This document shows, one piece after another, positions 1,799-44,847 of a stretch of 64,000 nt of DNA (the first letter of the stretch is position 1; every line of letters begins with the position of its first letter). Below the pieces are notes generated by a model. The model was not told where the DNA came from. It did no database searches and worked only from the letters and a program-made list of their open reading frames with translations. A program made the translations under genes and the position numbers. The stretch lies in NCBI GenBank assembly GCA_030699455.1, contig JAUYMN010000008.1, forward strand, positions 6,271 through 70,270, given 5' to 3'. Origin of the DNA: Nanobdellota archaeon (GTDB lineage: Archaea > Nanobdellota > Nanobdellia > SCGC-AAA011-G17 > UBA489).

Positions 1799-2014
1799 TT
1801 ATTGTTTTTTAGTAGCATATGGTGCCTTGTAATCACACGGTGTTTCTGCTGTGTATTTTGGTTTTTCCTTGTATGTTACTGCATCGGTAGTTATATTAAT
1901 TGCCGCGCTAATTGCAAGCTCTTCCAGCCCCATGCACGAAGGAAATGCCAGCAATGATGCTAATCCACCAGCCTGCAATGTTTTTTTCATTGTTTTTTTC
2001 ATTCTTGCCAACAT
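1799..2014 (-). CDS. small secreted or lipobox-like hypothetical protein
   Basis: Basic N-terminus, hydrophobic stretch, then Cys (LLAFPSC). Confidence 0.35.
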   Translation of the reverse strand: MLARMKKTMKKTLQAGGLASLLAFPSCMGLEELAISAAINITTDAVTYKEKPKYTAETPCDYKAPYATKKQ

Positions 2015-7659: not shown

Positions 7660-10600
7660 ATGACTGCCCAAGACAGAAGAATCGCCTACATGGATAAAGC
7701 ACACGACAAAAAGGAGATAGATAGAGTTCTAAATCCATTTGTTAAAAAATGGTTTTTTTCAAAATTTAAGGATTTTTCATTGCCACAGACTTATGCAGTT
7801 AAAGAAATTCACGACAGAAATAATATATTAGTTTCAGCCCCCACTGGTGGAACCAAGACACTAACTGCTTTCTTAAGCATACTAAATGAGCTTGTTAATC
7901 TCTCAATGTCAAACTCTTTGGAAGATAGGGTTTATGCAGTTTATATTTCTCCATTAAAAGCATTGAACAATGATATTCACAGAAATTTAGAAGAGCCATT
8001 GAATGAGATAAAAGAACTGGCTAGAAAAGAAGGTGTTGATTTGAATATTAGGATTGCAACCAGAACAGGTGATACCACACCTAGTGAAAGGCAAAAGATG
8101 TTAAGGAAGCCACCACATATATTGATTACAACGCCAGAATCGTTAGCCCTCATGCTTGGAAGCCTAAAATTTAAGGAATTAATGTTTGATGTTAACTGGT
8201 GCATAATTGATGAGATTCATGCATTGGCTGACAACAAAAGGGGCGTTCATATGGCTTTAAGCCTTGAAAGGCTGAATGTTCAGTCTCCAAACTTAACAAG
8301 AATTGGATTGAGTGCTACCGTCGAACCAATAGAGGAAGTTGCTAGATTTTTAGTTGGTAGTGGAAGAAACTGCAAAATAGCAAAAGTTGGTTTTGTTAAG
8401 AAGTTTGATCTGAAAGTTCTTAGCCCAATAAAAGATTTCTTTGATGTTACAGCTGAAAAGATGCAAAATAAATTGTATGATTTATTGGATAAACTAATAC
8501 AAGAACATAAGACTACATTAATATTTACCAATACTCGCGCAGGAACTGAAAGAGTGGTTCATCATCTGAAGGAAAGGTATCCATCTAATTATAGTGAGAA
8601 TATTGGCGCACATCATGGAAGTTTAAGCAAGAAATATAGAACAAATATAGAAAAAAGACTGAAAGAAGGTAAACTAAAAACAGTTGTTTGCTCCACAAGT
8701 TTGGAGTTGGGTATAGATATTGGTTATATTGACTTGGTTATTTGTTTGGGCAGTCCAAAGGGTGTTGCAAGGTTTCTTCAGAGATGTTTGCCTTATGAAT
8801 CAAGGGTCTTGCTTGCCGATGGCACTTATAAGGAAATTGGCGAGATTGTTGAAAAAAAGTTAGATGTTGAAATACTTTCATATGATATAAAAAAATGCAG
8901 GTTTGTTAGCAACAAAATTTCAAAATATCACAAAAATAAATCAAAAAATTTTTTAGAAATAAAGTTACATTCCGGGTCTAAAATCAGATGCACAGAGGAG
9001 CACCCCATTTTAACAAGAGATGGTTGGAAAAAATCAAAAAATCTTAAGAAAGGAGAGGATATAGCTGAAATTTTTGATTTTAAATATGATGACACCCCAT
9101 ATATTTACGAATTAATAAACAATAAGGATTTTTATGTGGAAAATAAGGAAGATTTTATTAAAGAATGTGTTGATAAATACATCATAGATAATAAAATTTC
9201 TTATTCTAAATTCGCCAAACTCATGGGGATAAATCAGAATAAATTACAGGATATTATGAGGAAAAAAGGAAGAAGAAAAAGCATTAGGCTTGATTTGTTC
9301 ATAAAAATAATGAATCTTTGCAATGTTCATAAAAATACCTATCATCCCTGCCTTAAGGGATTGAAGAGCCAGTCCCATCATAGAAAATTGTTGTCTTTAA
9401 AACCGGATAAAGCGCTAATGTGGCTGGCAGGCATAGTCGCCTCAGATGGGTGCATTACCAAACACAAAAAAACAGGAGAATACAAAATAAAGATTGGAAA
9501 CAAAGATTTGAATATATTAAAAAAATGTCAGTCTATTTTTAATAAGTATGGATTTTATCAAAAAATCAATACAAGAAAAAGAGATGGGATTATGTCTATT
9601 GAATGCGGATCTAAAATTTTATCCCAGATATTTATTTCTTTTGGCATAAAAACAAAAAATAAATCAATCGATTTGGAAGTTTCTAATGTTTTGTATAAGA
9701 TGCCAAAAAATCTTGTTATACCATTTATTGAAGGAGTTTTAGAGGGAGATGGCAATGTCTCACAGGATAGAATAAGAATTTTTTCTGCTAGTAGCAAGTT
9801 TATTTCAGGTTTGCATAACCTCCTTAACAGGCATGGAGTTCATAATTATTTTTGTGAGCAGGAGGCAAAAGTATCAAAAATTGTTCCAAAAATTAATTTT
9901 AAAAATATATATTGTCTTTATGTTTCAAGAAAAAGGCACCTGAGAAAATTCCTAAAATATTGTATTTTTAATGAAAAAAAAGTTAAATCTTTAAGAAGCT
10001 CTGTCGATTACCATTATAAATCAGATAAGGATATTGAAAAAAATATTCATTGGACAAAAATAAAGTCAATTAATTATGCCAAACACAATGGATACGCATA
10101 TAACTTAACTTTGGAAAATGAGCCCAACGATTATTTTGTTGAGAGTATCTTAACCCATAACTGTGGTAGATCGGGACACAAAATGCATGAAACAGTTAAA
10201 GGTAGATTAGTTGTTATGGACAGGGATGATTTGGTTGAGTGCAGTGTTTTATTAAAAAATGCAATGGATAAAAAAATTGACAGAATTGATATCCCAATGA
10301 ACTGTTTAGATGTTTTGGCTCAACAGATACATGGCATGGCCTGTACCGAAGTATGGGACAAGTGGAAGATGTATGAGACTATAAAAAAAAGTTATTGCTA
10401 TAGCAGTTTAACCATAAGTGATTTTGAAGAGATTCTTGATTATCTTGCCGGCAGTTTTGCAAGGCTTGAAGAAAGATATGTCTATGCAAAAATATGGTAT
10501 GATCCGGAAACAAATCAGATTGGAAAGAAAGGCAGGATGGGAAGGGTAATCCATATGACAAATATAGGAACTATTCCTGACACTACAAATGTCAAAGTTA

Positions 10601-11658
10601 AAATCAATGATGTGACTATTGGAACTATTGATGAAGGATTTTTAGAGAAATTGAAAAAAGGAGATATATTTGTTTTAGGTGGAAATACTTATGAATTTAG
10701 ATTTAGCCGTGGAACTGTCGCACAGGTGGTTGCTTCTATTGGTAAAAAGCCAACTGTTCCATCATGGTATTCTGAAATGTTGCCATTAAGCTATGATTTA
10801 GCCTCAAGCATCGGAAAATTCAGGAGGTATATGCTCGATTTGTTTGCCAACAAAAAAAGTAAGGAAGAAATAATTAATTATATTCATGAATACTTGTATG
10901 TCGATGAAAATTCTTCAAATGCCATTTACGAATATTTTTTAGAACAATTTTTATATGCCGATATACCACATGACAAAAAAATTATCGTTGAGTTTTATAA
11001 CTCTGGCGCAAAAGACGAGAAAAAATATTATGTGTTCCATTCACTTTTTGGAAGAAGAGTTAATGATGTTTTATCAAGAGCCATCGCATTTGCTGCTTCA
11101 AAGATACATCAAAGAGATATAGAGGTGGGGATTAATGATAATGGGTTTTATCTGGCCTGTCCACAGGATAGAAATATCAATGTGATGAAAGCAATAGAAT
11201 TGATTAATGTCAAGAATTTTGAAGATGTCATGAAGCAATCCATTGATGGCAGTGAGGTTTTAAAAAGAAGATTTAGGCATTGTGCAGGCAGAAGCATGAT
11301 GATACTTAGGAATTACAAAGATAACAGAAAGAGTGTTGGAAGACAACAAGTAAGCAGCATGATACTTATGAATGCTGTAAAGAGAATCAGCAATGATTTT
11401 TGCATATTAAAAGAAGCAAGAAGGGAAGTTCTGGAAGATTTAATGGATCAGAACAATGCAAAAGAGATTTTAAAAGAAATTAAATCTAAAGCAATATCCA
11501 TAGAAAAAATTGATACTAAAATTCCAAGCCCGTTTGCCTTTAATTTAGTTACTCAGGGCTATAATGATATCCTAAGAATGGAAGACAAAATCGAGTTCAT
11601 ACGAAGAATGCATCAGATGGTTTTGGCAAAAATTGGAAAATCCCACAAGATGGAGTGA
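7660..11658 (+). CDS. lhr: Lhr-type large ATP-dependent helicase, intein-containing
   Basis: Walker A APTGGTKT, DEIH, SAT, and a long Lhr-like C-terminal region. Motif VI (QR..GRSGH) is split by an intein. Confidence 0.9.
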   Translation: MTAQDRRIAYMDKAHDKKEIDRVLNPFVKKWFFSKFKDFSLPQTYAVKEIHDRNNILVSAPTGGTKTLTAFLSILNELVNLSMSNSLEDRVYAVYISPLKALNNDIHRNLEEPLNEIKELARKEGVDLNIRIATRTGDTTPSERQKMLRKPPHILITTPESLALMLGSLKFKELMFDVNWCIIDEIHALADNKRGVHMALSLERLNVQSPNLTRIGLSATVEPIEEVARFLVGSGRNCKIAKVGFVKKFDLKVLSPIKDFFDVTAEKMQNKLYDLLDKLIQEHKTTLIFTNTRAGTERVVHHLKERYPSNYSENIGAHHGSLSKKYRTNIEKRLKEGKLKTVVCSTSLELGIDIGYIDLVICLGSPKGVARFLQRCLPYESRVLLADGTYKEIGEIVEKKLDVEILSYDIKKCRFVSNKISKYHKNKSKNFLEIKLHSGSKIRCTEEHPILTRDGWKKSKNLKKGEDIAEIFDFKYDDTPYIYELINNKDFYVENKEDFIKECVDKYIIDNKISYSKFAKLMGINQNKLQDIMRKKGRRKSIRLDLFIKIMNLCNVHKNTYHPCLKGLKSQSHHRKLLSLKPDKALMWLAGIVASDGCITKHKKTGEYKIKIGNKDLNILKKCQSIFNKYGFYQKINTRKRDGIMSIECGSKILSQIFISFGIKTKNKSIDLEVSNVLYKMPKNLVIPFIEGVLEGDGNVSQDRIRIFSASSKFISGLHNLLNRHGVHNYFCEQEAKVSKIVPKINFKNIYCLYVSRKRHLRKFLKYCIFNEKKVKSLRSSVDYHYKSDKDIEKNIHWTKIKSINYAKHNGYAYNLTLENEPNDYFVESILTHNCGRSGHKMHETVKGRLVVMDRDDLVECSVLLKNAMDKKIDRIDIPMNCLDVLAQQIHGMACTEVWDKWKMYETIKKSYCYSSLTISDFEEILDYLAGSFARLEERYVYAKIWYDPETNQIGKKGRMGRVIHMTNIGTIPDTTNVKVKINDVTIGTIDEGFLEKLKKGDIFVLGGNTYEFRFSRGTVAQVVASIGKKPTVPSWYSEMLPLSYDLASSIGKFRRYMLDLFANKKSKEEIINYIHEYLYVDENSSNAIYEYFLEQFLYADIPHDKKIIVEFYNSGAKDEKKYYVFHSLFGRRVNDVLSRAIAFAASKIHQRDIEVGINDNGFYLACPQDRNINVMKAIELINVKNFEDVMKQSIDGSEVLKRRFRHCAGRSMMILRNYKDNRKSVGRQQVSSMILMNAVKRISNDFCILKEARREVLEDLMDQNNAKEILKEIKSKAISIEKIDTKIPSPFAFNLVTQGYNDILRMEDKIEFIRRMHQMVLAKIGKSHKME
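8785..10161 (+). other. intein (459 aa) with LAGLIDADG homing-endonuclease domain
   Basis: Starts with Cys (CLPYESRVLLADG) right after FLQR. Ends THN, followed by the +1 Cys of CGRSGH. Two LAGLIDADG motifs (WLAGIVASDGC, FIEGVLEGDGN). In frame with the host ORF. Confidence 0.85.
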
Positions 11659-11659
11659 A

Positions 11660-11899
11660 TTATTTTACATCAAGCAGTTTCTTCAGCTTGTCAACATCAA
11701 ATCCCACTATTATTTTTCCATCAATGTCTATGACCGGCACTCCTCTTTGCCCTGATTTTTCAATCATATCCCTTGCAGCATCCTGATTTTCTGCCACATT
11801 AACATCATCAAAGCTAAAATTATGCTCCTTTAGCCAATCTTTTGCCTTGTGACAATATGGACATGTTGGTGTGCTGTAAACTGTTATTTTATGTGTCAT
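11660..11899 (-). CDS. glutaredoxin-like protein
   Basis: 79 aa with CPYC and the GVPVIDIDGKIIVGFD pattern. Confidence 0.85.
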   Translation of the reverse strand: MTHKITVYSTPTCPYCHKAKDWLKEHNFSFDDVNVAENQDAARDMIEKSGQRGVPVIDIDGKIIVGFDVDKLKKLLDVK

Positions 11900-11954
11900 T
11901 TTGATACCTCATGATATCAGTTTATTTGTTGATATATAAATTTTATCTTTAACA

Positions 11955-12680
11955 TTACCACTGAAAATCCTGCTGACTTCGATCTTCTTTATCTTTGCCT
12001 TGTTTTTCTTTCTTTTCAAATTGCCATGATACTTGGTCTTGTTTTTCTTTCGGTCTGATAAACTCTAATGCTATTCCGATTACCATTAAAATTGCTGATA
12101 ACACTGTTGAAATTATTATTGATTTAGTGAGAAAATCAGTAAAAAACCTGCCGGAAAATACAGCTACTAATGCATCTTGTGATGGATCTAACTGCCAAAG
12201 GCTGTTTGTGAATATAATCCTATGCAATCCCGCCCAGAATGAGTTGAATGCAAACGTTATCAGTAGAAATATAACAACAGTTAATCCTATAGTCAGCATC
12301 GCCCCAAGAAAAATTGATTTAGGAATCATTTTATTTGATATCAGAATCAGAGTTATCAGCAGAAGTATCACTAGGACTGTCAGACCATAAAAAATATACA
12401 ATGACAAAGATCTTAATGATTTTACATCTTCCATATGCGTTGCTGCGGTTGAACCCACTATGCCGGGATTAATGTCTTCTTTGTTCTTGAAATAAAGGAC
12501 CACATTATTTGCTATGCTTTTTGCTGTTTCCTTATCAACATGCAGTCTGTCAATGACATCTGATTTTTCTATTTCCTTATTGAAGAAATCTATATCTGTG
12601 CTCATGTATAAAATTGGACCAGATATAAGCAATATTGGTATAATAATGGTTATTAACAACTGAATATACTTTCCATTCAT
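11955..12680 (-). CDS. integral membrane protein, DUF1461/TIGR01906-like (family that includes Lit)
   Basis: N-terminal TM, an extracytoplasmic segment with THMEDVKSL (recalled family motif E..HM.DVK), then 3-4 TMs. Assignment is from memory and needs an HMM check. Confidence 0.5.
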   Translation of the reverse strand: MNGKYIQLLITIIIPILLISGPILYMSTDIDFFNKEIEKSDVIDRLHVDKETAKSIANNVVLYFKNKEDINPGIVGSTAATHMEDVKSLRSLSLYIFYGLTVLVILLLITLILISNKMIPKSIFLGAMLTIGLTVVIFLLITFAFNSFWAGLHRIIFTNSLWQLDPSQDALVAVFSGRFFTDFLTKSIIISTVLSAILMVIGIALEFIRPKEKQDQVSWQFEKKEKQGKDKEDRSQQDFQW

Positions 12681-12689
12681 GTTTTGCCT

Positions 12690-13202
12690 TTAATTGTTTA
12701 CTTCTGCTATCAACTCATCAATAATCTTCCTGAATTCTTTCTCTTCTAATTCTAAACTACCCATCGCTTCATATCCATTGCCAAATCTTATGTATTTACA
12801 ACCAAATATAAATGTCGGAACAGATCCCTGCTTGTTAGTGTCTCTGAATATTTTCATCTCTGATTCTGGCACTTCTGTTTCTACATCTTCTGTCAATGCA
12901 TCGTCGCCTATGTCAACTTCCCATAAATATGCCGTTATCTTGCCTTCGTTAACATACTCATTAACAACTTTGGAATACGTCTCCTTAATCCACTGGCAGT
13001 GCGGACACCAGGTTGTTCCAAACTCTCTTATTATTGGTTTTCCGTCTTGCGTGCAAATATCATTACTTACTTTTATGAAAGTTTCTTTTTCCTGAGCAGG
13101 CGATGCCTCTATGTTTACCCTTCCGTTTACTTCCCTTTGCTTACAGGAAGCTACTAGCAATAATGTGAGCAGTAATATCAGTAGAATTGTTGATTTTTTC
13201 AT
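12690..13202 (-). CDS. thioredoxin-fold lipoprotein (thiol:disulfide oxidoreductase)
   Basis: Signal peptide with lipobox LVASC, and a WCPHC redox motif. Confidence 0.7.
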   Translation of the reverse strand: MKKSTILLILLLTLLLVASCKQREVNGRVNIEASPAQEKETFIKVSNDICTQDGKPIIREFGTTWCPHCQWIKETYSKVVNEYVNEGKITAYLWEVDIGDDALTEDVETEVPESEMKIFRDTNKQGSVPTFIFGCKYIRFGNGYEAMGSLELEEKEFRKIIDELIAEVNN

Positions 13203-13226
13203 AGTTTATTGAAATATTTGGGGTAT

Positions 13227-13979
13227 TTAAGATTTCTGTTGCACTGTTTTATAAATCCATATCCCCGCCACAAACATGGGGATGGACAGTATTTGTCCCA
13301 TTGTCAGAAACCCTATAACTATTTCCGGCTCCCTCACAAATTCTACTGCAAACCTCAGTGCAGAGTATAATATTAAAAATAAAGCAAATAACTCGCCTGT
13401 TTTGAAGTTCTTCGATTTAAAGTATAATACTATCAATATTAAGGAGTTTTTTAATGATTCATATAACTGTGATGGGTGCCTAAAACCATCTGAATCAGGA
13501 AATTTAACAGCCCACGGTACTGAAGTTATTCTCCCATATAATTCTCCATTGATGAAGTTGGCTATTCTTCCAAAGATTAATGATATTGCAAGGGGTATCA
13601 TTAAAATATCTGCTAACTCTAAGAATTTGTAGTTATGTTTTTTTGAAAAGTAATATACTGCTATCATAGCGCCTAAAATTCCCCCATGTATTGACATCCC
13701 TCCATGCCAGAATTTAATAATTTCAACCGGATTCGAAATATAAAAGCCAAAGTTATAAAAGACTATGTAAAATAGCCTTGCTGTTATTAAAGAGCCCAAT
13801 ATTAAGTAAAATATAAAATCTTCTGGGTATTCTTTTGAGTTGAATGTTTTTTTCCCTAATTTGCTTTTTTTAAGATACAGCAATGTTAGTAAAAATCCGA
13901 GAAAGTATACAATCCCATAATATCTTATCTCTATTGGTCCAAATGATAAAAATACAGGATTGATATTGTGTATGAACAT
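13227..13979 (-). CDS. lgt: prolipoprotein diacylglyceryl transferase
   Basis: HGGMSIHGG, GRIANFINGELYG, PWAVKF and RHPSQLYES are hallmark Lgt motifs. Confidence 0.85.
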   Translation of the reverse strand: MFIHNINPVFLSFGPIEIRYYGIVYFLGFLLTLLYLKKSKLGKKTFNSKEYPEDFIFYLILGSLITARLFYIVFYNFGFYISNPVEIIKFWHGGMSIHGGILGAMIAVYYFSKKHNYKFLELADILMIPLAISLIFGRIANFINGELYGRITSVPWAVKFPDSDGFRHPSQLYESLKNSLILIVLYFKSKNFKTGELFALFLILYSALRFAVEFVREPEIVIGFLTMGQILSIPMFVAGIWIYKTVQQKS

Positions 13980-14031
13980 GCTTGGTCTATATGACAGTAA
14001 TATTTAATAATAGTGGTTGTATTTTTGTGAT

Positions 14032-15690
14032 ATGCAGCTTACTTCAGACAATCATGATGAATTCAAGGAATGGGCTTTTAACACCGTAGAGGACATAAAA
14101 AAACTTGAAGGTGTAGAGCTGATAGAAAAATCTGAGGAATTTTTTGCCGATTATTATGACCAATATGCCGAATTACAGGTAAAACACACACAAAGAACCA
14201 ATGATGAAATTGTCGATAAAGAACTTTCTTTTATGAGGGACGAGATAAATCCCGTTCTTGCTGAAGCTGGAGCCAAAATAGCAGAAAAGGTTATTAAAAG
14301 AGATGATTATCCGGCACAATTCAAGGAATATGTCAAGTCTGCAAGGGTAACACATGAATTATTTCACCCGGATATTCCCGAGCTACAGAAAAGGGCTGCA
14401 AGGCTAGAAACAGATTATGAGAAAAAATATGGCTCTCTGACTATAGAGGTCAATGGCGAAAAATTTCCTGTTACTAAAGCCGGGAAGTTATTAGAATCGT
14501 TTGATAAAGATATAAGAAAAGAGGCATGGAATAGTTTGAAGAAAGCCTTTGTCGAAAATCAAGAATTCTTTGAAAAAAATTATATTGAACTTGTTAATTT
14601 AAGAAAAAAAATAGCTGAAAAAGCTGGATGCAAGGATTACATTGAATATATCTTCAAAGCTAAACTAAGAGAATATACCCCGCAAGACTGTTATGATTAT
14701 CATGAAGCTGTAAAAAAGTATGTTGTTCCAAGAATAAATGAATTTCAAAAAAAGAGGAAAAGTATATTGAATGTTGAAAGGTTATATCCCTATGATTGTG
14801 GGTTTTCCATCAATGCAAAGCACGAGTTGCATCCATTTGATCCGAAGGATGAGAAAAAATTTGTGAGTGGAATTAAAAATGCTATAAATAAAATAAGCCC
14901 TGATATAGCCAAACATTTTCAGGAGATGTACGATAATAAAAGATTTGATTTAATTGCAAGGGAAAACAAAGCCCCCGGCGGGTATAATATGCCGTTTGTA
15001 ACAAAACCTTATTCATTTATATTCATGAATGCAAATGGTACACACCGGGACTTGAATACATTATGTCATGAAGAAGGACATGCATGGCATGGTGGATTAA
15101 CCATGAAATATAAATATCCCTTTGAGAAGGATTATTCTGCTGAAGTTGCCGAAACTGCTTCTACATTTTTGGAGCACGTTTCATCTGAAAAACTAAATGA
15201 TTTTTACAGTGATGAAGAATTAAGATGGGCTCTGAAGGATCAATGGGCGAGTGAGATTGGACTTTTGTCGTGGGTTGCCACAATAGACAAATTCCAGCAT
15301 GAAGTTTTTAAAACCGACGTGCTTGATAATGAAAAATTAAGAGAGATATGGAAAAGTGTATCTAAGGAATTTAGGGGCGAAGTGGTTGATTGGGAAAATG
15401 ATCTTGATTTTGAGCAGATAAAATATGCCCAACAGCTACATCCATTTACACATCCTTTTTATTACATAGAATATGCTATTTGTTTTATTGCTTCCGCACA
15501 ATTGATGAAAATATTTAGTGAAAATCCAAAAGAGGCATTAGAAAGATACAACAAGGGGCTTTCATTAGGCGGGACTGTGAGCACTAAAGAGGTTTATGAA
15601 ACTGGTTTTGGGATACCTCTAAAGTTTGGCGAAGAACAGGTCAAACTAGCTGTTGAGCTTTATGAAAAAAAGTTAAAAGAATTAGAGTAA
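14032..15690 (+). CDS. pepF: M3-family oligoendopeptidase F
   Basis: HEEGHAWH zinc motif and a PepF-like length. ATG at 14032 preferred over the TTG at 14017. Confidence 0.85.
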   Translation: MQLTSDNHDEFKEWAFNTVEDIKKLEGVELIEKSEEFFADYYDQYAELQVKHTQRTNDEIVDKELSFMRDEINPVLAEAGAKIAEKVIKRDDYPAQFKEYVKSARVTHELFHPDIPELQKRAARLETDYEKKYGSLTIEVNGEKFPVTKAGKLLESFDKDIRKEAWNSLKKAFVENQEFFEKNYIELVNLRKKIAEKAGCKDYIEYIFKAKLREYTPQDCYDYHEAVKKYVVPRINEFQKKRKSILNVERLYPYDCGFSINAKHELHPFDPKDEKKFVSGIKNAINKISPDIAKHFQEMYDNKRFDLIARENKAPGGYNMPFVTKPYSFIFMNANGTHRDLNTLCHEEGHAWHGGLTMKYKYPFEKDYSAEVAETASTFLEHVSSEKLNDFYSDEELRWALKDQWASEIGLLSWVATIDKFQHEVFKTDVLDNEKLREIWKSVSKEFRGEVVDWENDLDFEQIKYAQQLHPFTHPFYYIEYAICFIASAQLMKIFSENPKEALERYNKGLSLGGTVSTKEVYETGFGIPLKFGEEQVKLAVELYEKKLKELE

Positions 15691-21697: not shown

Positions 21698-22147
21698 ATG
21701 AACATAAAAAAAATTTATGAAGCAGGCAAAAAAGGATTGGCGGGAATTGTTTTAGCAGGTACTCTCGCGTTAAATGGTTGTGTAGATCACCAAGAGCATA
21801 CAACTCAAGAATTGCCTTATTTTGCAGTTAAAAACATAGAAACAGTTTTGGCAATGGATCATGGAGAACGACCAAGACATGTAGAAAATGGTGTGGTTTA
21901 CACGCCAATGGTAAGATTTGACACTCAATTTCCACAATTGGAAGGAGTAAAAGCACAACAAGGAGATAAAACATACATTTTTCGGTCAAGCATGTATGAT
22001 GGACGTTTAACTGAAATAAGCAACACAGAAGGCGAAGCATATCTAAGAGTTGGAATGCTACCGGAAGAATTTAATTCCTTTAACGACGGAGTAGGAAAAG
22101 GTGCTGACACAAGCTATGCCAAGTTTATAGAAGAATTTAACAAATAA
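21698..22147 (+). CDS. lipobox lipoprotein, hypothetical
   Basis: MNIKKIYEAGKKGLAGIVLAGTLALNGC has a signal peptide and lipobox Cys. SD-like aaggagg upstream; divergent from TrmB paralog 2. Confidence 0.6.
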   Translation: MNIKKIYEAGKKGLAGIVLAGTLALNGCVDHQEHTTQELPYFAVKNIETVLAMDHGERPRHVENGVVYTPMVRFDTQFPQLEGVKAQQGDKTYIFRSSMYDGRLTEISNTEGEAYLRVGMLPEEFNSFNDGVGKGADTSYAKFIEEFNK

Positions 22148-25218: not shown

Positions 25219-25605
25219 ATGAAAATGAATAAAACTTTAACTAGCATCGTTTTGGCAGGAGCTTTAGCTCTTAGTGGCTGTAGTGGAAAAGTCGACGATT
25301 CTAGATATGATTTCAAGGGAAAACTTGGAGATGAACAGGTAGAATTTATACGACAAGGCAATTTTTTGGTCTCCTCTGTAGATGATGGGTTATATTTAAC
25401 AGTTACAAAAGCAGATGGAAAAACTATAACTTATATCGACAGAGGAAATGATTTGAAACTAGATGAAGTAATAATCGGATACGAAGTTTATATAAATGAT
25501 GCTGTTGGACAAAACGCATTAGAATTGGCACAACAACAATTTGATGGTTATTTGACAAAAATTCTTGAATATAAACAGCAAAAAGCTGTTGATGCAATCA
25601 AGTAA
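25219..25605 (+). CDS. lipobox lipoprotein, hypothetical
   Basis: MKMNKTLTSIVLAGALALSGC has a signal peptide and lipobox. Confidence 0.6.
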   Translation: MKMNKTLTSIVLAGALALSGCSGKVDDSRYDFKGKLGDEQVEFIRQGNFLVSSVDDGLYLTVTKADGKTITYIDRGNDLKLDEVIIGYEVYINDAVGQNALELAQQQFDGYLTKILEYKQQKAVDAIK

Positions 25606-30814: not shown

Positions 30815-31126
30815 ATGAAACTATATCAAAAAATTGCAACATATACATTTATTGGTGCTGCAAGTTTAGGATTATTTGGTTGTGATAAAAAAGATTCACA
30901 ACGAGCAACTGAACAACCATTACCAGCTGAAATGAGAACATATGAAGTTAGCCCATATGTATTTGGTAAATCTAAAATTAATTATGACCATTTACCAAAT
31001 CTAGGATGGTCGGACATGATTGGGGTAACTTGCGGAGATTTAGATGGTGATGGAGATTTAGAAGTGATTGTTGCAACAAAAGATGGATTAACAATTTACG
31101 AAAACAGAACAGAACAAAAAAGATAA
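30815..31126 (+). CDS. lipobox lipoprotein with FG-GAP-like repeat
   Basis: IGAASLGLFGC signal and lipobox-like Cys, plus CGDLDGDGDLEVIVATKDG. Confidence 0.6.
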   Translation: MKLYQKIATYTFIGAASLGLFGCDKKDSQRATEQPLPAEMRTYEVSPYVFGKSKINYDHLPNLGWSDMIGVTCGDLDGDGDLEVIVATKDGLTIYENRTEQKR

Positions 31127-33035: not shown

Positions 33036-33500
33036 ATGGATGCTGGGAGAAGATTATCTGGATTGATAAAACCTTTTGTTTTTCTTGTGGGTTTAGCTTC
33101 GTGCAGTAATGAGAAGTCAGACCGGCACACCATTGATGAAATTTTACACAACGCAAAACCTGATGTTGTTTCTGTATGTTATGATAAAGAAGATAGAACA
33201 CTTAATGAGTTTATCTCAATCATTCATGAAGATCATGGGATAGCTGTTATTAGAAGGGATGTTGGAAAATTTAAAAACAGTTCCTATGCATTTTGGGGCG
33301 CACAGAATGACAGGAATACGGTTGATATCATATTCTGGTATGGGTCTGATAAAAAACTTGATAGAAACAATTTGGAAAGTATAAACCGAATATACTCAAG
33401 AAATAACAAAAATTATTTTGGCGTGTTTGGATTAAATCCTAATCTGTCCCTTAGAGCTATTGCAACAACAGAAATAGGCAATAAATTAGCTATTAGATAG
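33036..33500 (+). CDS. lipobox lipoprotein, hypothetical
   Basis: FVFLVGLASC signal and lipobox. Confidence 0.5.
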   Translation: MDAGRRLSGLIKPFVFLVGLASCSNEKSDRHTIDEILHNAKPDVVSVCYDKEDRTLNEFISIIHEDHGIAVIRRDVGKFKNSSYAFWGAQNDRNTVDIIFWYGSDKKLDRNNLESINRIYSRNNKNYFGVFGLNPNLSLRAIATTEIGNKLAIR

Positions 33501-41208: not shown

Positions 41209-42162
41209 TTAACGAAGTAAATAGATAAGTCGAGTTATTAGTAGTCGCGGGCTGAATACCTCGTTACCTCGGTACTTACACCCCGACCCTATCAAACCTG
41301 TATTCTTCAGGTACTCTTAGTCTATTTTCGCGGCGGGTTTCGAGCTTAGATGCTTTCAGCTCTTATCCCTTGGCGCGTAGCTGCCCAGCCTGCCCTGTCG
41401 GACAACTGGTAAACCAGTGGCGCCGAACCTTTGTTCCTCTCGTACTAAAAGATCCTTCCACTCAGACTTTGACACCCCCAGTAGATATCATACAAACTGT
41501 CTCACGACGTTCTTAACCCAGCTCACGATCCGCTTTAACCGGTGAACACCCGTACCCTTGGAAGCTTCTGCACTTCCAGGATGCGAAGAGCCGACAACGA
41601 AGTAGCAAGCAGCGCCGTCGATCTGAACTCTTAGGCGCTACAACTCAATTATCCCCGAGATAGCTTTTCTGTCATACCTAGCCCTCATCAATAAGGACAT
41701 AGGGGTTCGCTAGACCAGACTTTCGTCTCTGAGTACCTTAACGGTTGGAACTCAGTTAGGCAAGCTTTTGCTCTTGCACTCTACTTTGGATTTCTAAACC
41801 AAATGAGCTTACCTTTGGGCCCCACTGATACCTTTTCAGCGGGGTGCCGCCCCAGCCAAACTACCCACCAGTCGATGTCCTCGTATACGAGTTAGTGATA
41901 CAACACAAAGAAAGTGGTATTACACGGTCGCCTACGATTAGCTCTAACGAACTAACCATCAAACAGCTCCCACTTATACTATATACTAAGTATTATACCA
42001 CAACGACAAGCTGTAGTAAAGTTCTACGGGGTCTTCGCTTCCCACTGGAGGTCACTGGCCTTCACACCAGTATAGTATATTCAGAGGACACTAGTTTGGG
42101 ACAATGGGACCCTCGTTACACCATTCATGCAAGCCGACATTCAATCGGCAGGGTATTGCGCT

Positions 42163-42855
42163 CAATTTGTTACTACATTATTTCTAATGTGACTAAACCA
42201 TTTCTGTTTAGCTCCTTACATCGCTGCAAGGATCGGACTATATCATCACTTGTTACCAAGTGTTTGGCGTGTAGTCTCTGAGGATTCTAGATATTTGAGT
42301 CGCGGTCTGCGATTCATTTTAGAAATTAGGTTTGCTATTTTATCAAGCCCTTCTTTTGTTAAGTGTTCTTTATTGTTCATCATGTGAATTACGTCAGAAA
42401 AAACTTCAAAGTTATTTTTCTTTACTGTGTGTAAAGGATATTTCTTAAAAAAAGTTATTATTTTATTTAAGTTATTTAATCCTCTAACACGAAATTCTTT
42501 TCTGTCGTTGTTGTTAATTCCAACTGAACCAAATCCAAAATAAGATTTAATCTTATGGAGAACTTGTTCACTTCTTTCATGTTGAACAACCCTAAACTCT
42601 GGAAGTACTTGCCATCCGAGTGTCATTTTTTCAAGCTTATTGATTGCTATATGAAAACAACCCTCGCCGTCAACAAATCCTGATATCCAGTTTGCATCTA
42701 GTCTTTCCTGCTGATTGTCTGCACTCACCACATTTTCACCTTTTGTTTTTGATATTAATAAACATCATTACAAATTAATCGAAGTTAATTCGAAAGGTAG
42801 TGTGAGATACTCAGATGTTCCAGCATATAGCCAAATTTTACTAAGGCAACCTTTC
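42163..42855 (-). mobile_element. group I intron at 23S position about L1931 (E. coli numbering)
   Basis: Exons rejoin as CTCTTAAGGT|AGCGCAATACC. The 5' exon ends in U and the intron ends in G. P1 forms UAAGGU with GCCUUA, with a U-G wobble at the splice site. Contains a LAGLIDADG ORF. Confidence 0.75.
42246..42731 (-). CDS. LAGLIDADG homing endonuclease (single-motif)
   Basis: 161 aa, WISGFVDGEGCF. Lies inside the rRNA intron. Confidence 0.85.
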   Translation of the reverse strand: MVSADNQQERLDANWISGFVDGEGCFHIAINKLEKMTLGWQVLPEFRVVQHERSEQVLHKIKSYFGFGSVGINNNDRKEFRVRGLNNLNKIITFFKKYPLHTVKKNNFEVFSDVIHMMNNKEHLTKEGLDKIANLISKMNRRPRLKYLESSETTRQTLGNK

Positions 42856-43670
42856 ACCTTAAGAGAATCATAGTTATTCCCGCCGTTTACCTGTCCTTAG
42901 TTCCCTTGAAAGGGAGTTTGAGATACAGGCACTGGGCAGATGTCACGTTCCATACACATCCTTGCGGACTTGCGAAACGCTACGTTTTTATTAAACAGTC
43001 GGAGCCCCTTGATCTTTGAACCCTGTATCCGCATATTAAATATACAGACGCAGGGACCCTTTATACCGAAGGTACAGGGCTAATCTGTCGAATTCCCTAA
43101 ACTAGTTTAAACCTTCATGCCTTGGCTTTCTCTGCCAGCCCACCAGTGCTGGTTCTTGGTACGGATATATATGATCCTTGCACATTCCCTTTTCACTGAT
43201 TCCAGGCCTCTACCAAACGATCCACAGAACCGCCATTCCTCCTTTAATTCGGGTCTCATCATTACGATACTCACCGAATTTATAGAAGTTAGCAAGTACG
43301 ACGATACTTGTTGGTATAGCCTAAAATGTCAGAAATATGCCTTGCGTTGCCGCGCGTACATATATAGTACAGGAATCTTAACCTGTTTCCCCTTCCCACT
43401 AGACCAATTAGGACTTGGGTTAGGACCGACTTACTCTTCGCTGACGAACATTGCGAAGAAACCCTTGGGCTTTCGGCATTACGGATTCTCACCGTATATA
43501 GATCCTACTACTACCAGGATTCTCATCCCTACACGGTCCACCAATTCTTACGAAAAGGCTTCTGCCCATGCAAGGCGCCTGCCTACCTCACTCCTTACGG
43601 AGGACTATGGTATCGGTAATCCACTTAGCCCCGTCCATTTTCAGGGCACGTGACCTTGAATGGTGAGCTG

Positions 43671-43705
<35 letters not shown>

Positions 43706-44847
43706 TACCTCCCATCTGTCTCGGGTGACATACACCTTTCGCCCTTTAACACTTAGCGGATATTTTGGGACCTTAACCATAGAGGGGGTTGTTCCCCCAT
43801 AGAGACGCAAGTTTACCCCGCGCCCCTTTTTCCCGACTTCTACGATGCCTGCACATTCGGAGTTGAACAAGTGGGCGAGGAGTTTCCTCCCCAAACCCAC
43901 AAATCCGTGGCTCTACCTCACAGGCGACCTCCGTCGAGACTAAACTAAGGCTTATTTCGGCAGGAACCAGCTATTACCGATCTCGATTGGCTTTTCACCC
44001 CTAACCAACAGTCACACGAACGCATGCACACAGCACCGCTTCGGACTTCCACAAACCGTCAGGTTCACTTCATCCTGCTGTAGGTTAGATCGACCGGTTT
44101 CGGGTAACTTCCCTGTGACTTTTGGCGCATTAACACCATGTCCCTGACAAAAAGCTGCGGACAATTGCTTTAGCTATGGGTGCGTGATGATATCACTTAC
44201 CCTTGCCACAGAAAAGAACTCCCTGGCTCGTTATTCGAAACGCACGATACAACCCCGAAAGGCCGTATCTCTCAATAACTATTAGGTTTCAGGCTCTTTT
44301 GACTCCCTGTAATGGGTTCTTTTCAACGTTCCATCACTGTACTATACTCTATCGGACTTGGGTTATATTTAGAGTTAGGAGTTGATGCCTCCCAGATTCA
44401 GACGCAATTTCCAATGCATCCTACTCAGGATACTTGTACATCTTTTGTTCTACTTCTACGGGACTATCACCCTCTATGGTACTGCTTTCCAGCAGACTTT
44501 GAATCAAACAAATAAGACTAAAAACAAGTCCTGCAACACCACATCTCTTAACCATTTCTGGTAAGATTCAGTTTGCTCTCTGCTGTGTTCAATCGCCTTT
44601 ACTGACAGCATCTCAATTGATTTCTTTTCCTCCAGGTACTGTAACGCTTTACTTCCCTGGGTGAGTTTTCCTTTCGGAATGTCATAAGACAAGAAGTCTC
44701 ATTCAGGAATCTATGGTTCAATGGCTGCATGCGCCTCGCCATAGCATTTCGTAGCTTGCCACGCCCTTCATCACTACCCAAGCCAAGTCATCCACCTAAT
44801 AGTGTAATAGGTCTATTTACTTCTTTCATACTATAATTATATGAAAA

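Follow-up and report, generated by a model that had tools for sequence, protein, structure and literature searches.

Genes for bacterial-type lipoprotein maturation in a Woesearchaeota-type DPANN archaeon and in its order

The lgt gene cluster, its partners and the archaeal contig

The DNA analysed here is a stretch of 64,000 nucleotides (referred to below as the window) from the contig JAUYMN010000008.1 of a Nanobdellota archaeon (GenBank assembly GCA_030699455.1), and the subject of this analysis is a gene cluster related to the lipoprotein maturation system of bacteria. The window lies in a contig of 76.8 kb. The host genome is a Woesearchaeota-type DPANN metagenome-assembled genome (MAG) of 770 kb in 28 contigs, with a completeness of 82.7% and a contamination of 1.2%. 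At window positions 11660–13979, four close-set genes were found on the minus strand, separated by gaps of 24, 9 and 55 bp:

13227..13979, minus strand: lgt, a prolipoprotein diacylglyceryl transferase homologue of 250 amino acids (PF01790, TIGR00544)
12690..13202, minus strand: a thioredoxin-fold (DsbA/StoA-like, CPHC) lipoprotein with a signal peptide ending in the lipobox LVAS/C (PF13462 and PF00085, strict lipobox)
11955..12680, minus strand: a Lit-family membrane protein of 241 amino acids, candidate lipoprotein intramolecular transacylase (PF07314)
11660..11899, minus strand: a glutaredoxin-like protein (YruB family, CPYC), the final gene of the cluster (PF00462, E-value 9e-21)

An earlier note on this DNA, made from the letters alone, had described an open reading frame (ORF) with hallmark Lgt motifs, next to which stood a thioredoxin-fold protein with an LVASC lipobox and a membrane protein recalling DUF1461/TIGR01906. 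These features were found where that note had placed them and with the motifs it had named, and the sole correction is that all of them are encoded on the minus strand. Based on the evidence given below, we consider it quite probable that this Woesearchaeota (DPANN) archaeon has a functioning lipoprotein maturation pathway of the bacterial type, part of which is encoded in the window.

The lgt product matched PF01790 with an E-value of 2.7e-72 (243.4 bits against a cut-off of 24.9) over profile positions 1–238 of 240 and scored well above the cut-off of the equivalog TIGR00544 (206.8 vs. 118.9 bits). A phmmer comparison with Escherichia coli Lgt (Protein Data Bank (PDB) entry 5AZB) gave an E-value of 3.7e-41. 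All nine key residues of the E. coli enzyme (Y26, H103, R143, N146, E151, G154, Y235, R239 and E243) are present in the window protein as Y21, H98, R138, N141, E146, G149, Y205, R209 and E213, respectively. Among 54 archaeal Lgt homologues, Y26, N146, E151, G154 and R239 (E. coli numbering) are invariant, R143 is kept in 53 sequences, and H103 and Y235 are each kept in 51; E243 is variable in the archaeal clade, being Glu in 33 of the 54. The hidden Markov model (HMM) scores and the residue-level checks bear out the hallmark motifs, and the ORF is confirmed, at the level of sequence, as a canonical prolipoprotein diacylglyceryl transferase homologue. Its likeness to E. coli Lgt (5AZB/5AZC) includes full-length homology, all the essential or important residues, and the presence of cognate lipobox substrates. 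The differences are that the periplasmic head of the window protein is about 25 residues shorter (window residues 163–167 correspond to E. coli chain positions 170–196), that the archaeal sequences can be grouped in a separate clade, and that the host is an archaeon without phospholipid synthesis genes, so that the lipid donor must be scavenged.

The neighbouring thioredoxin-fold ORF matched both PF13462 and PF00085 at an E-value of about 5e-6 and carries the redox motif CPHC. Its N-terminus, MKKSTILLILLLTLLLVASC, consists of a signal peptide and the lipobox LVASC; the HMM matches and the strict lipobox thus uphold the reading of a thioredoxin-fold lipoprotein beside lgt. This CPHC protein is likely to be a substrate of the lipoprotein pathway encoded within the operon itself. 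The glutaredoxin-like ORF scored 98 bits for TIGR02196, above the cut-off of 88.55.

The Lit-like ORF matched PF07314 ("Lit", formerly DUF1461) with an E-value of 2.2e-25 (90.1 bits, cut-off 24) over profile positions 2–176 of 176, and phmmer aligned it with Bacillus cereus Lit (7B0O) at an E-value of 1.6e-7. The motif THMEDVKSL aligns with the region of the catalytic His85 of the B. cereus enzyme, and H82 and H153 of the window protein correspond to the catalytic His85 and His153. The roles of residues in B. cereus Lit, including the catalytic His85–His153 dyad and the invariant Phe157, have been described (PMC8275575). The residues H82, V86, F145, H153 and F157 of the window protein are invariant in all 25 distinct archaeal homologues, and the dyad together with Asp88, Val89, Lys90, Phe157, Asn159 and Trp162 of B. 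cereus Lit is conserved in the window protein.

An AlphaFold2 model of the Lit-like protein, built from a shallow alignment of eight sequences (a word-indexed protein search had given four proteins), reached a mean predicted local distance difference test (pLDDT) score of 87.3 and a predicted template-modelling (pTM) score of 0.78. It has four transmembrane helices with an extracytoplasmic cap. The only significant PDB matches of this model were the Lit structures 7B0O, 7B0P, 7B0Q and 7B0R (TM-score 0.71–0.88, root-mean-square deviation 2.2–2.7 Å), and the next match had an E-value of about 0.8. The fold is therefore common to the window protein model and B. cereus Lit (TM-score 0.78–0.88), while a charged C-terminal tail occurs in the window protein and not in the B. 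cereus enzyme. We regard the protein as a distant member of the Lit family and, judging by its residues and modelled fold, as a candidate lipoprotein intramolecular transacylase.

A gene for LspA (signal peptidase II) was found on a contig other than that of lgt (G000:C20:58849–59229, minus strand, G000 being this genome) and scored 92.6 bits for PF01252 against a cut-off of 25. Both of its catalytic-Asp motifs, GNLIDR and FNVAD, align to Staphylococcus aureus LspA (6RYO). PF01252 and the Asp motifs are thus common to this protein and bacterial LspA (MEROPS A8; S. aureus 6RYO, Pseudomonas aeruginosa 5DIR), whereas the archaeal protein is compact (126 amino acids) and is encoded among several lipoprotein genes on C20. 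As for Lnt (TIGR00546), no protein exceeded the cut-off in any of 41 genomes, where only weak, generic nitrilase-fold matches were obtained. Because Lgt, LspA and a Lit-like protein are present and Lnt is absent, the enzyme set corresponds to that of the lyso-form pathway of Firmicutes (Lgt, LspA and Lit, with B. cereus Lit 7B0O and Enterococcus faecalis Lit as examples), from which Lnt is likewise missing. Unlike in that pathway, lit is here in an operon with lgt, the thioredoxin lipoprotein gene and the glutaredoxin gene.

To these enzymes can be added their predicted substrates. When 960 non-overlapping ORFs from the whole genome were scanned, the strict pattern being a signal-peptide-like segment followed by [LVI][ASTVI][GAS]C, 14 strict predicted lipoproteins were obtained, and 20 N-termini had a looser lipobox. 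Cys at position +1 occurred at 10.8 times the frequency-normalised rate, and the next residue reached at most 3.4 times, which indicates a lipobox signal beyond chance. The predicted lipoproteins include a cyclophilin, MsrB, a staphylococcal-type nuclease, a cupredoxin, a rhodanese with DUF1573, SIMPL, DUF192 and an alpha/beta hydrolase; such predicted functions are typically extracytoplasmic. Contig C20 is rich in predicted lipoprotein genes, with seven lipobox ORFs at 21.5–65.7 kb, among them the cyclophilin, MsrB and the cupredoxin.

Since the gene families are typically bacterial and the genome is a MAG of 28 contigs that is 82.7% complete, it is conceivable that the lgt–lit cluster is bacterial contamination or the product of a chimeric assembly or bin. 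However, the cluster stands between an intein-bearing (as it probably is) Lhr helicase gene and an archaeal RNase P RNA, and an archaeal large-subunit (LSU, 23S) rRNA (2431 bits) is found in the same window and thus on the same 76.8-kb contig. The GC content is flat across the cluster and the same as in its flanks, and six of the seven examined genomes of the genus show the same gene order next to Lhr. In addition, Lgt and LspA occur in the single-contig genomes G025, G112 and G149 of the order and class, and the nearest Lgt homologues in named genomes come almost all from "Candidatus Woesearchaeota" or Nanoarchaeota MAGs of many independent studies. Based on the uniform GC, the archaeal RNAs on the contig and the recurrent gene order, contamination was rejected and retains hardly any probability; the contig is archaeal and not chimeric, a point that the earlier note had singled out for confirmation.

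Distribution, linkage and ancestry

To assess how far these genes extend beyond one organism, the genomes of the order were compared. Lgt was found in 58 of the 61 genomes of the order (42/44 genera and 34/35 high-quality genomes), LspA in 59 of 61 (35/35 high-quality genomes), and the Lit-like gene in 41 of 61. In an evenly sampled set of 151 genomes of the class, Lgt was found in 40 and LspA in 37; all 37 LspA-positive genomes were also Lgt-positive, and 111 genomes had neither. Of the three Lgt-only genomes in this sample, two showed weak matches only. Because the co-occurrence is near-perfect, the Lgt–LspA pair appears to be inherited as a unit; both genes are near-universal in the order, and in the rest of the class some families have them and the others lack them. 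The earlier note had foreseen that a wide occurrence of Lgt in the lineage would lower the novelty of the finding, and this is the case: since almost every genome of the order has Lgt and LspA, the interest lies in the lineage rather than in this organism or in the mobile cassettes described in that note.

The general view that archaea lack Lgt and Lsp, mentioned in the earlier note, is indeed found in specialist papers of 2025–2026 (PMC12462473, PMC13251419), the second of which (2026) describes Lgt as "absent from archaea" from a RefSeq scan of February 2021. The presence of canonical Lgt and LspA across a large DPANN order corrects the statement that archaea lack both. Within the literature covered by full-text and supplement searches, no paper was found that brings DPANN or Woesearchaeota together with Lgt, LspA or lipoproteins. 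AliA and AliB of Haloferax volcanii (arCOG02177/arCOG02178), the only experimentally supported archaeal lipidation components, perform the same cellular task, the lipidation of the lipobox Cys. According to Hong et al., some archaeal genomes lack both AliA and AliB although they encode many lipoproteins; the Lgt–LspA pathway could account for some of these genomes. It should be noted that the enzymes belong to known families, that it is the archaeal host lineage that is new, and that public annotation almost certainly names these proteins already, given canonical scores above the naming thresholds. The value of the finding is thus in the phylogenetic distribution and its implications and not in a new mechanism. 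The original observation is confirmed, and its interpretation is supported: the enzymes are canonical bacterial ones, and they occur, unexpectedly, throughout an archaeal lineage. What the window adds as new is the lgt–lipoprotein–lit–grx operon, the residue- and fold-level case for Lit, the lit–lspA adjacency, the Lgt–LspA co-occurrence and the absence of lipid genes.

The linkage of these genes was also compared between genomes. The order lgt, thioredoxin lipoprotein, lit and grx was found in all seven genus genomes examined, with Lhr alongside in six of them. The thioredoxin lipoprotein gene and lit adjoin in every genus and family genome examined, with lgt within 0–10 kb, and the glutaredoxin gene is co-linear with lgt and lit in family f8. 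In G031, which belongs to a different family, lgt, lit and grx are directly adjacent, and in G029 and G049, from two further families, lit abuts lspA. Consequently, at least four families have the lit-like gene next to lgt or lspA, and this recurring neighbourhood ties the gene functionally to the lipoprotein pathway.

These data bear on a further explanation, namely that the genes are kept as relics or for another membrane function and that an AliA-type enzyme lipidates the lipobox proteins. AliA (arCOG02177) has been reported in DPANN "with some gaps" (PMC12462473), which speaks for it. However, the catalytic residues are strictly conserved over dozens of divergent genomes of 0.5–1.6 Mb, Lgt and LspA co-occur almost perfectly, the Lgt, LspA and Lit-like genes are linked, and matching lipobox substrates are encoded, including one within the operon. 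Since residues, co-occurrence, linkage and substrates are all kept in extremely reduced genomes, selection on the canonical function is indicated, and we hold the relic explanation to be very improbable.

The ancestry of Lgt was addressed with a tree in which 54 archaeal sequences were combined with 36 bacterial ones, the latter drawn by similarity. In the free tree, the backbone of which had weak support, the bacterial sequences formed three long-stemmed clades interspersed among archaeal groups. When the archaeal Lgt sequences were constrained to one clade, the likelihood was better than that of the free tree (+24.95 log-likelihood units (lnL)) and the constraint was not rejected (approximately unbiased test, p-AU 0.84); a reading of the interleaved topology as multiple transfers was therefore set aside. 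The result fits one old acquisition of Lgt followed by vertical descent. Thus, bacteria probably supplied the genes at an early point in the history of the lineage, in what we infer to be a single ancient transfer, and the genes were then inherited as core genes. Of the bacterial ancestry that the earlier note had proposed for the cluster, the origin itself is plausible, and the archaeal sequences fit one clade that long stems set apart from the bacterial ones, but a joint movement of the genes is not borne out: lspA is unlinked to the cluster in this genome, and the lgt–lit linkage is looser outside the genus.

Some individual Lgt sequences deserve mention. The closest bacterial sequences (42–43% identity; L045, L047, L056 and L058) come from gut and rumen "Alphaproteobacteria" MAGs; in the tree they group closely together on a long stem that adjoins the archaeal Lgt. 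This position may mean that their lineage was the donor or that a transfer took place in the opposite direction, or it may be an artefact. The Lgt sequences of "uncultured Methanosarcinales archaeon" MAGs (L025, L026, L028, L034, L041, L043, L049, L055, L061 and L085) are nested among those of Woesearchaeota/Nanoarchaeota, as is the Lgt of "Euryarchaeota archaeon SM23-78" (L042). The Methanosarcinales and Euryarchaeota labels at NCBI probably go back to placeholder or mistaken taxonomy, and not to Lgt in methanogens. In G042 (same order, family f19), four Lgt-family matches were found; one of them is canonical (243 bits), and the others are three divergent paralogues (73–77 bits) on separate contigs. 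A second, weaker Lgt copy is also present in G088, G122 and G167.

Proposed pathway and source of the lipid

Taken together, these results allow us to propose the following order of steps. The first step would be performed by Lgt, which lipidates the Cys thiol of Sec-exported lipobox precursors. Then, LspA, encoded on the other contig, would cut the signal peptide ahead of the lipidated Cys. In this family, a Lit-type enzyme may subsequently remodel the anchor by transferring its sn-2 acyl chain onto the unoccupied alpha-amino group, without the participation of Lnt. The product would be a lyso-form lipoprotein of the kind made by Enterococcus and B. cereus. The substrates would number about 14–20 and would include the CPHC thioredoxin, the extracytoplasmic cyclophilin, MsrB, the nuclease, the cupredoxin and the rhodanese. 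The lipid donor is proposed to be a scavenged phospholipid, presumably taken from the host.

The question of the donor rests on lipid synthesis genes. Geranylgeranylglyceryl phosphate (GGGP) synthase performs the committed step of archaeal ether-lipid synthesis. It was found in none of the 41 sampled genomes of the order (this genome and its relatives G001–G040), while archaeal control genomes do score. Neither a PlsC-type acyltransferase nor a CDP-alcohol phosphatidyltransferase was found in this genome and genus; some sister genera have them. Since phospholipid synthesis genes of both types are absent, the lipid donor must be scavenged, and the lineage appears, from its gene content, to be unable to make any glycerophospholipid. 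This agrees with the published statement that Woesearchaeota cannot make membrane lipids (PMC8421398).

The nature of the scavenged lipid is suggested by the Lit-like gene. Catalysis by Lit shifts an ester-linked sn-2 acyl chain (PMC8275575). Because ether-linked archaeol cannot undergo this chemistry, the conservation of the Lit-like gene and its linkage to the pathway point to lipids of the ester type, similar to those of bacteria. Published speculation is in line with this: according to one proposal, Woesearchaeia modify lipids that come from bacterial hosts (PMC11868695), and bacterial hosts have also been suggested for them as a possibility (PMC8204110). Full-length homologues of cyclopropane-fatty-acyl-phospholipid synthase (PF02353, ~304–309 bits over the whole profile) were found in 5 of the 61 genomes of the order, namely G051, G042, G009, G023 and G037. 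This synthase acts on unsaturated fatty-acyl phospholipids. As a marker of fatty-acyl lipids it gives weak support, and no full-length copy was found in this genome, whose own match is a generic methyltransferase (partial, 37.8 bits).

More tentatively, and with somewhat more doubt than confidence, we suggest that the envelope of Woesearchaeales may consist partly of ester-linked phospholipids scavenged from bacterial partners and may bear diacylglyceryl and, where Lit is present, lyso-form lipoproteins. If this is true, the Lgt–LspA–Lit module would be a genomic marker of archaeal life with bacterial lipids, and probably with bacterial hosts, and the lineage would be a case from nature in which the lipid divide is crossed through scavenging.

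It should be noted that several points weigh against the pathway in this form. The Lit-like gene is missing from 20 of the 61 genomes of the order and is hence not obligatory. The assignment to DUF1461/TIGR01906, which the earlier note had made, held for the Pfam family but not for TIGR01906, where the protein is below the cut-off (59.4 vs. 74.8 bits), and it is far under the cut-off of the NCBIfam Lit equivalog NF051877 (34.3 vs. 400 bits). Its identity to B. cereus Lit is only 18%, and given this value and the scores below the equivalog cut-offs, its exact reaction could differ. In addition, the bacterial sampling in the Lgt tree is biased to near relatives, so the tree does not fix the donor or the direction of transfer. 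Finally, an ether-lipid donor, if real, would make Lit chemistry impossible and would require Lgt to take the opposite glycerol stereochemistry.

The last point leads to an alternative in which the pathway is real but retooled for ether lipids. Lgt would move an archaeol-type moiety from scavenged archaetidylglycerol, LspA would process the product, and the Lit-like protein would perform something other than O-to-N acyl migration, for example, an acid–base reaction at the membrane interface. The organism is an archaeon, the characterised DPANN draw their lipids from archaeal hosts according to the literature, and haloarchaeal lipoproteins bear thioether-linked archaeol (PMC12462473). The low equivalog scores of the Lit-like protein, its absence from a third of the order and the variability of E243 in the archaeal Lgt also fit this explanation. 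On the other hand, the Lit catalytic histidines, F157, V89 and F145 are invariant in the 25 archaeal sequences, and the linkage of lit with lgt or lspA, seen in four or more families, is hard to explain without an ester bond in the substrate. The phosphate-binding arginines and other key residues of Lgt are canonical. The full-length cyclopropane synthases in five genomes of the order and the published suspicion of bacterial lipid handling by Woesearchaeia (PMC11868695, PMC8204110) likewise speak for acyl lipids, and we consider the retooling unlikely, though it deserves some weight. Because Lit chemistry needs an ester-linked acyl chain, the link to Lit makes the membrane composition of Woesearchaeota, which lack the means to make phospholipids, and the question of bacterial hosts testable.

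Other features of the window

Besides the thioredoxin-fold protein, the window contains the other lipobox ORFs named in the earlier note, together with a short intergenic region upstream of lgt:

21698..22147, plus strand: predicted lipoprotein with the lipobox-like LNG/C, looser pattern, read from the translation
25219..25605, plus strand: predicted lipoprotein, LSG/C, strict lipobox
30815..31126, plus strand: predicted lipoprotein, LFG/C, looser lipobox, read from the translation
33036..33500, plus strand: predicted lipoprotein, LAS/C, strict lipobox
1799..2014, minus strand: weak lipoprotein candidate of 71 amino acids, FPS/C, loose G+LPP-type pattern only
13980..14031, no strand: short intergenic stretch from which lgt and the M3 peptidase gene diverge, read from the sequence

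The ORFs at 25219 and 33036 are thus strict lipobox proteins and those at 21698 and 30815 are looser ones, while the ORF at 1799 is weak, in keeping with the hedge that the earlier note had attached to it.

A TATA-like element, TTATTAAATA, was found at 14001–14010, 22–31 nt upstream of the lgt ATG; it is a consensus resemblance only, in AT-rich DNA. For the M3 peptidase ORF (14017–15690, plus strand), the listed start is TTG at 14017, and the ATG at 14032 (MQLTSDNHDEF...) is likelier. With a start at ATG 14032, the M3 peptidase gene would share a divergent promoter region of 52 bp with lgt.

At the other end of the lgt cluster, an Lhr-type helicase ORF (7660–11658, plus strand, 1332 amino acids) converges on it. 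This ORF holds a large in-frame insertion with LAGLIDADG-like sequence, which is probably an intein. Since the Lhr copies by the cluster in relatives of the genus are shorter (~880 amino acids), the insertion is not fixed in the genus.

The match to the LSU rRNA (41218–44819, minus strand) spans about 3.6 kb against a model of 2987 positions. Three ORFs lie inside it (41844–42281, 42246–42731 and 43117–43653), where the GC content rises to 0.40–0.43, and this suggests that the LSU rRNA holds an intron or insertion.

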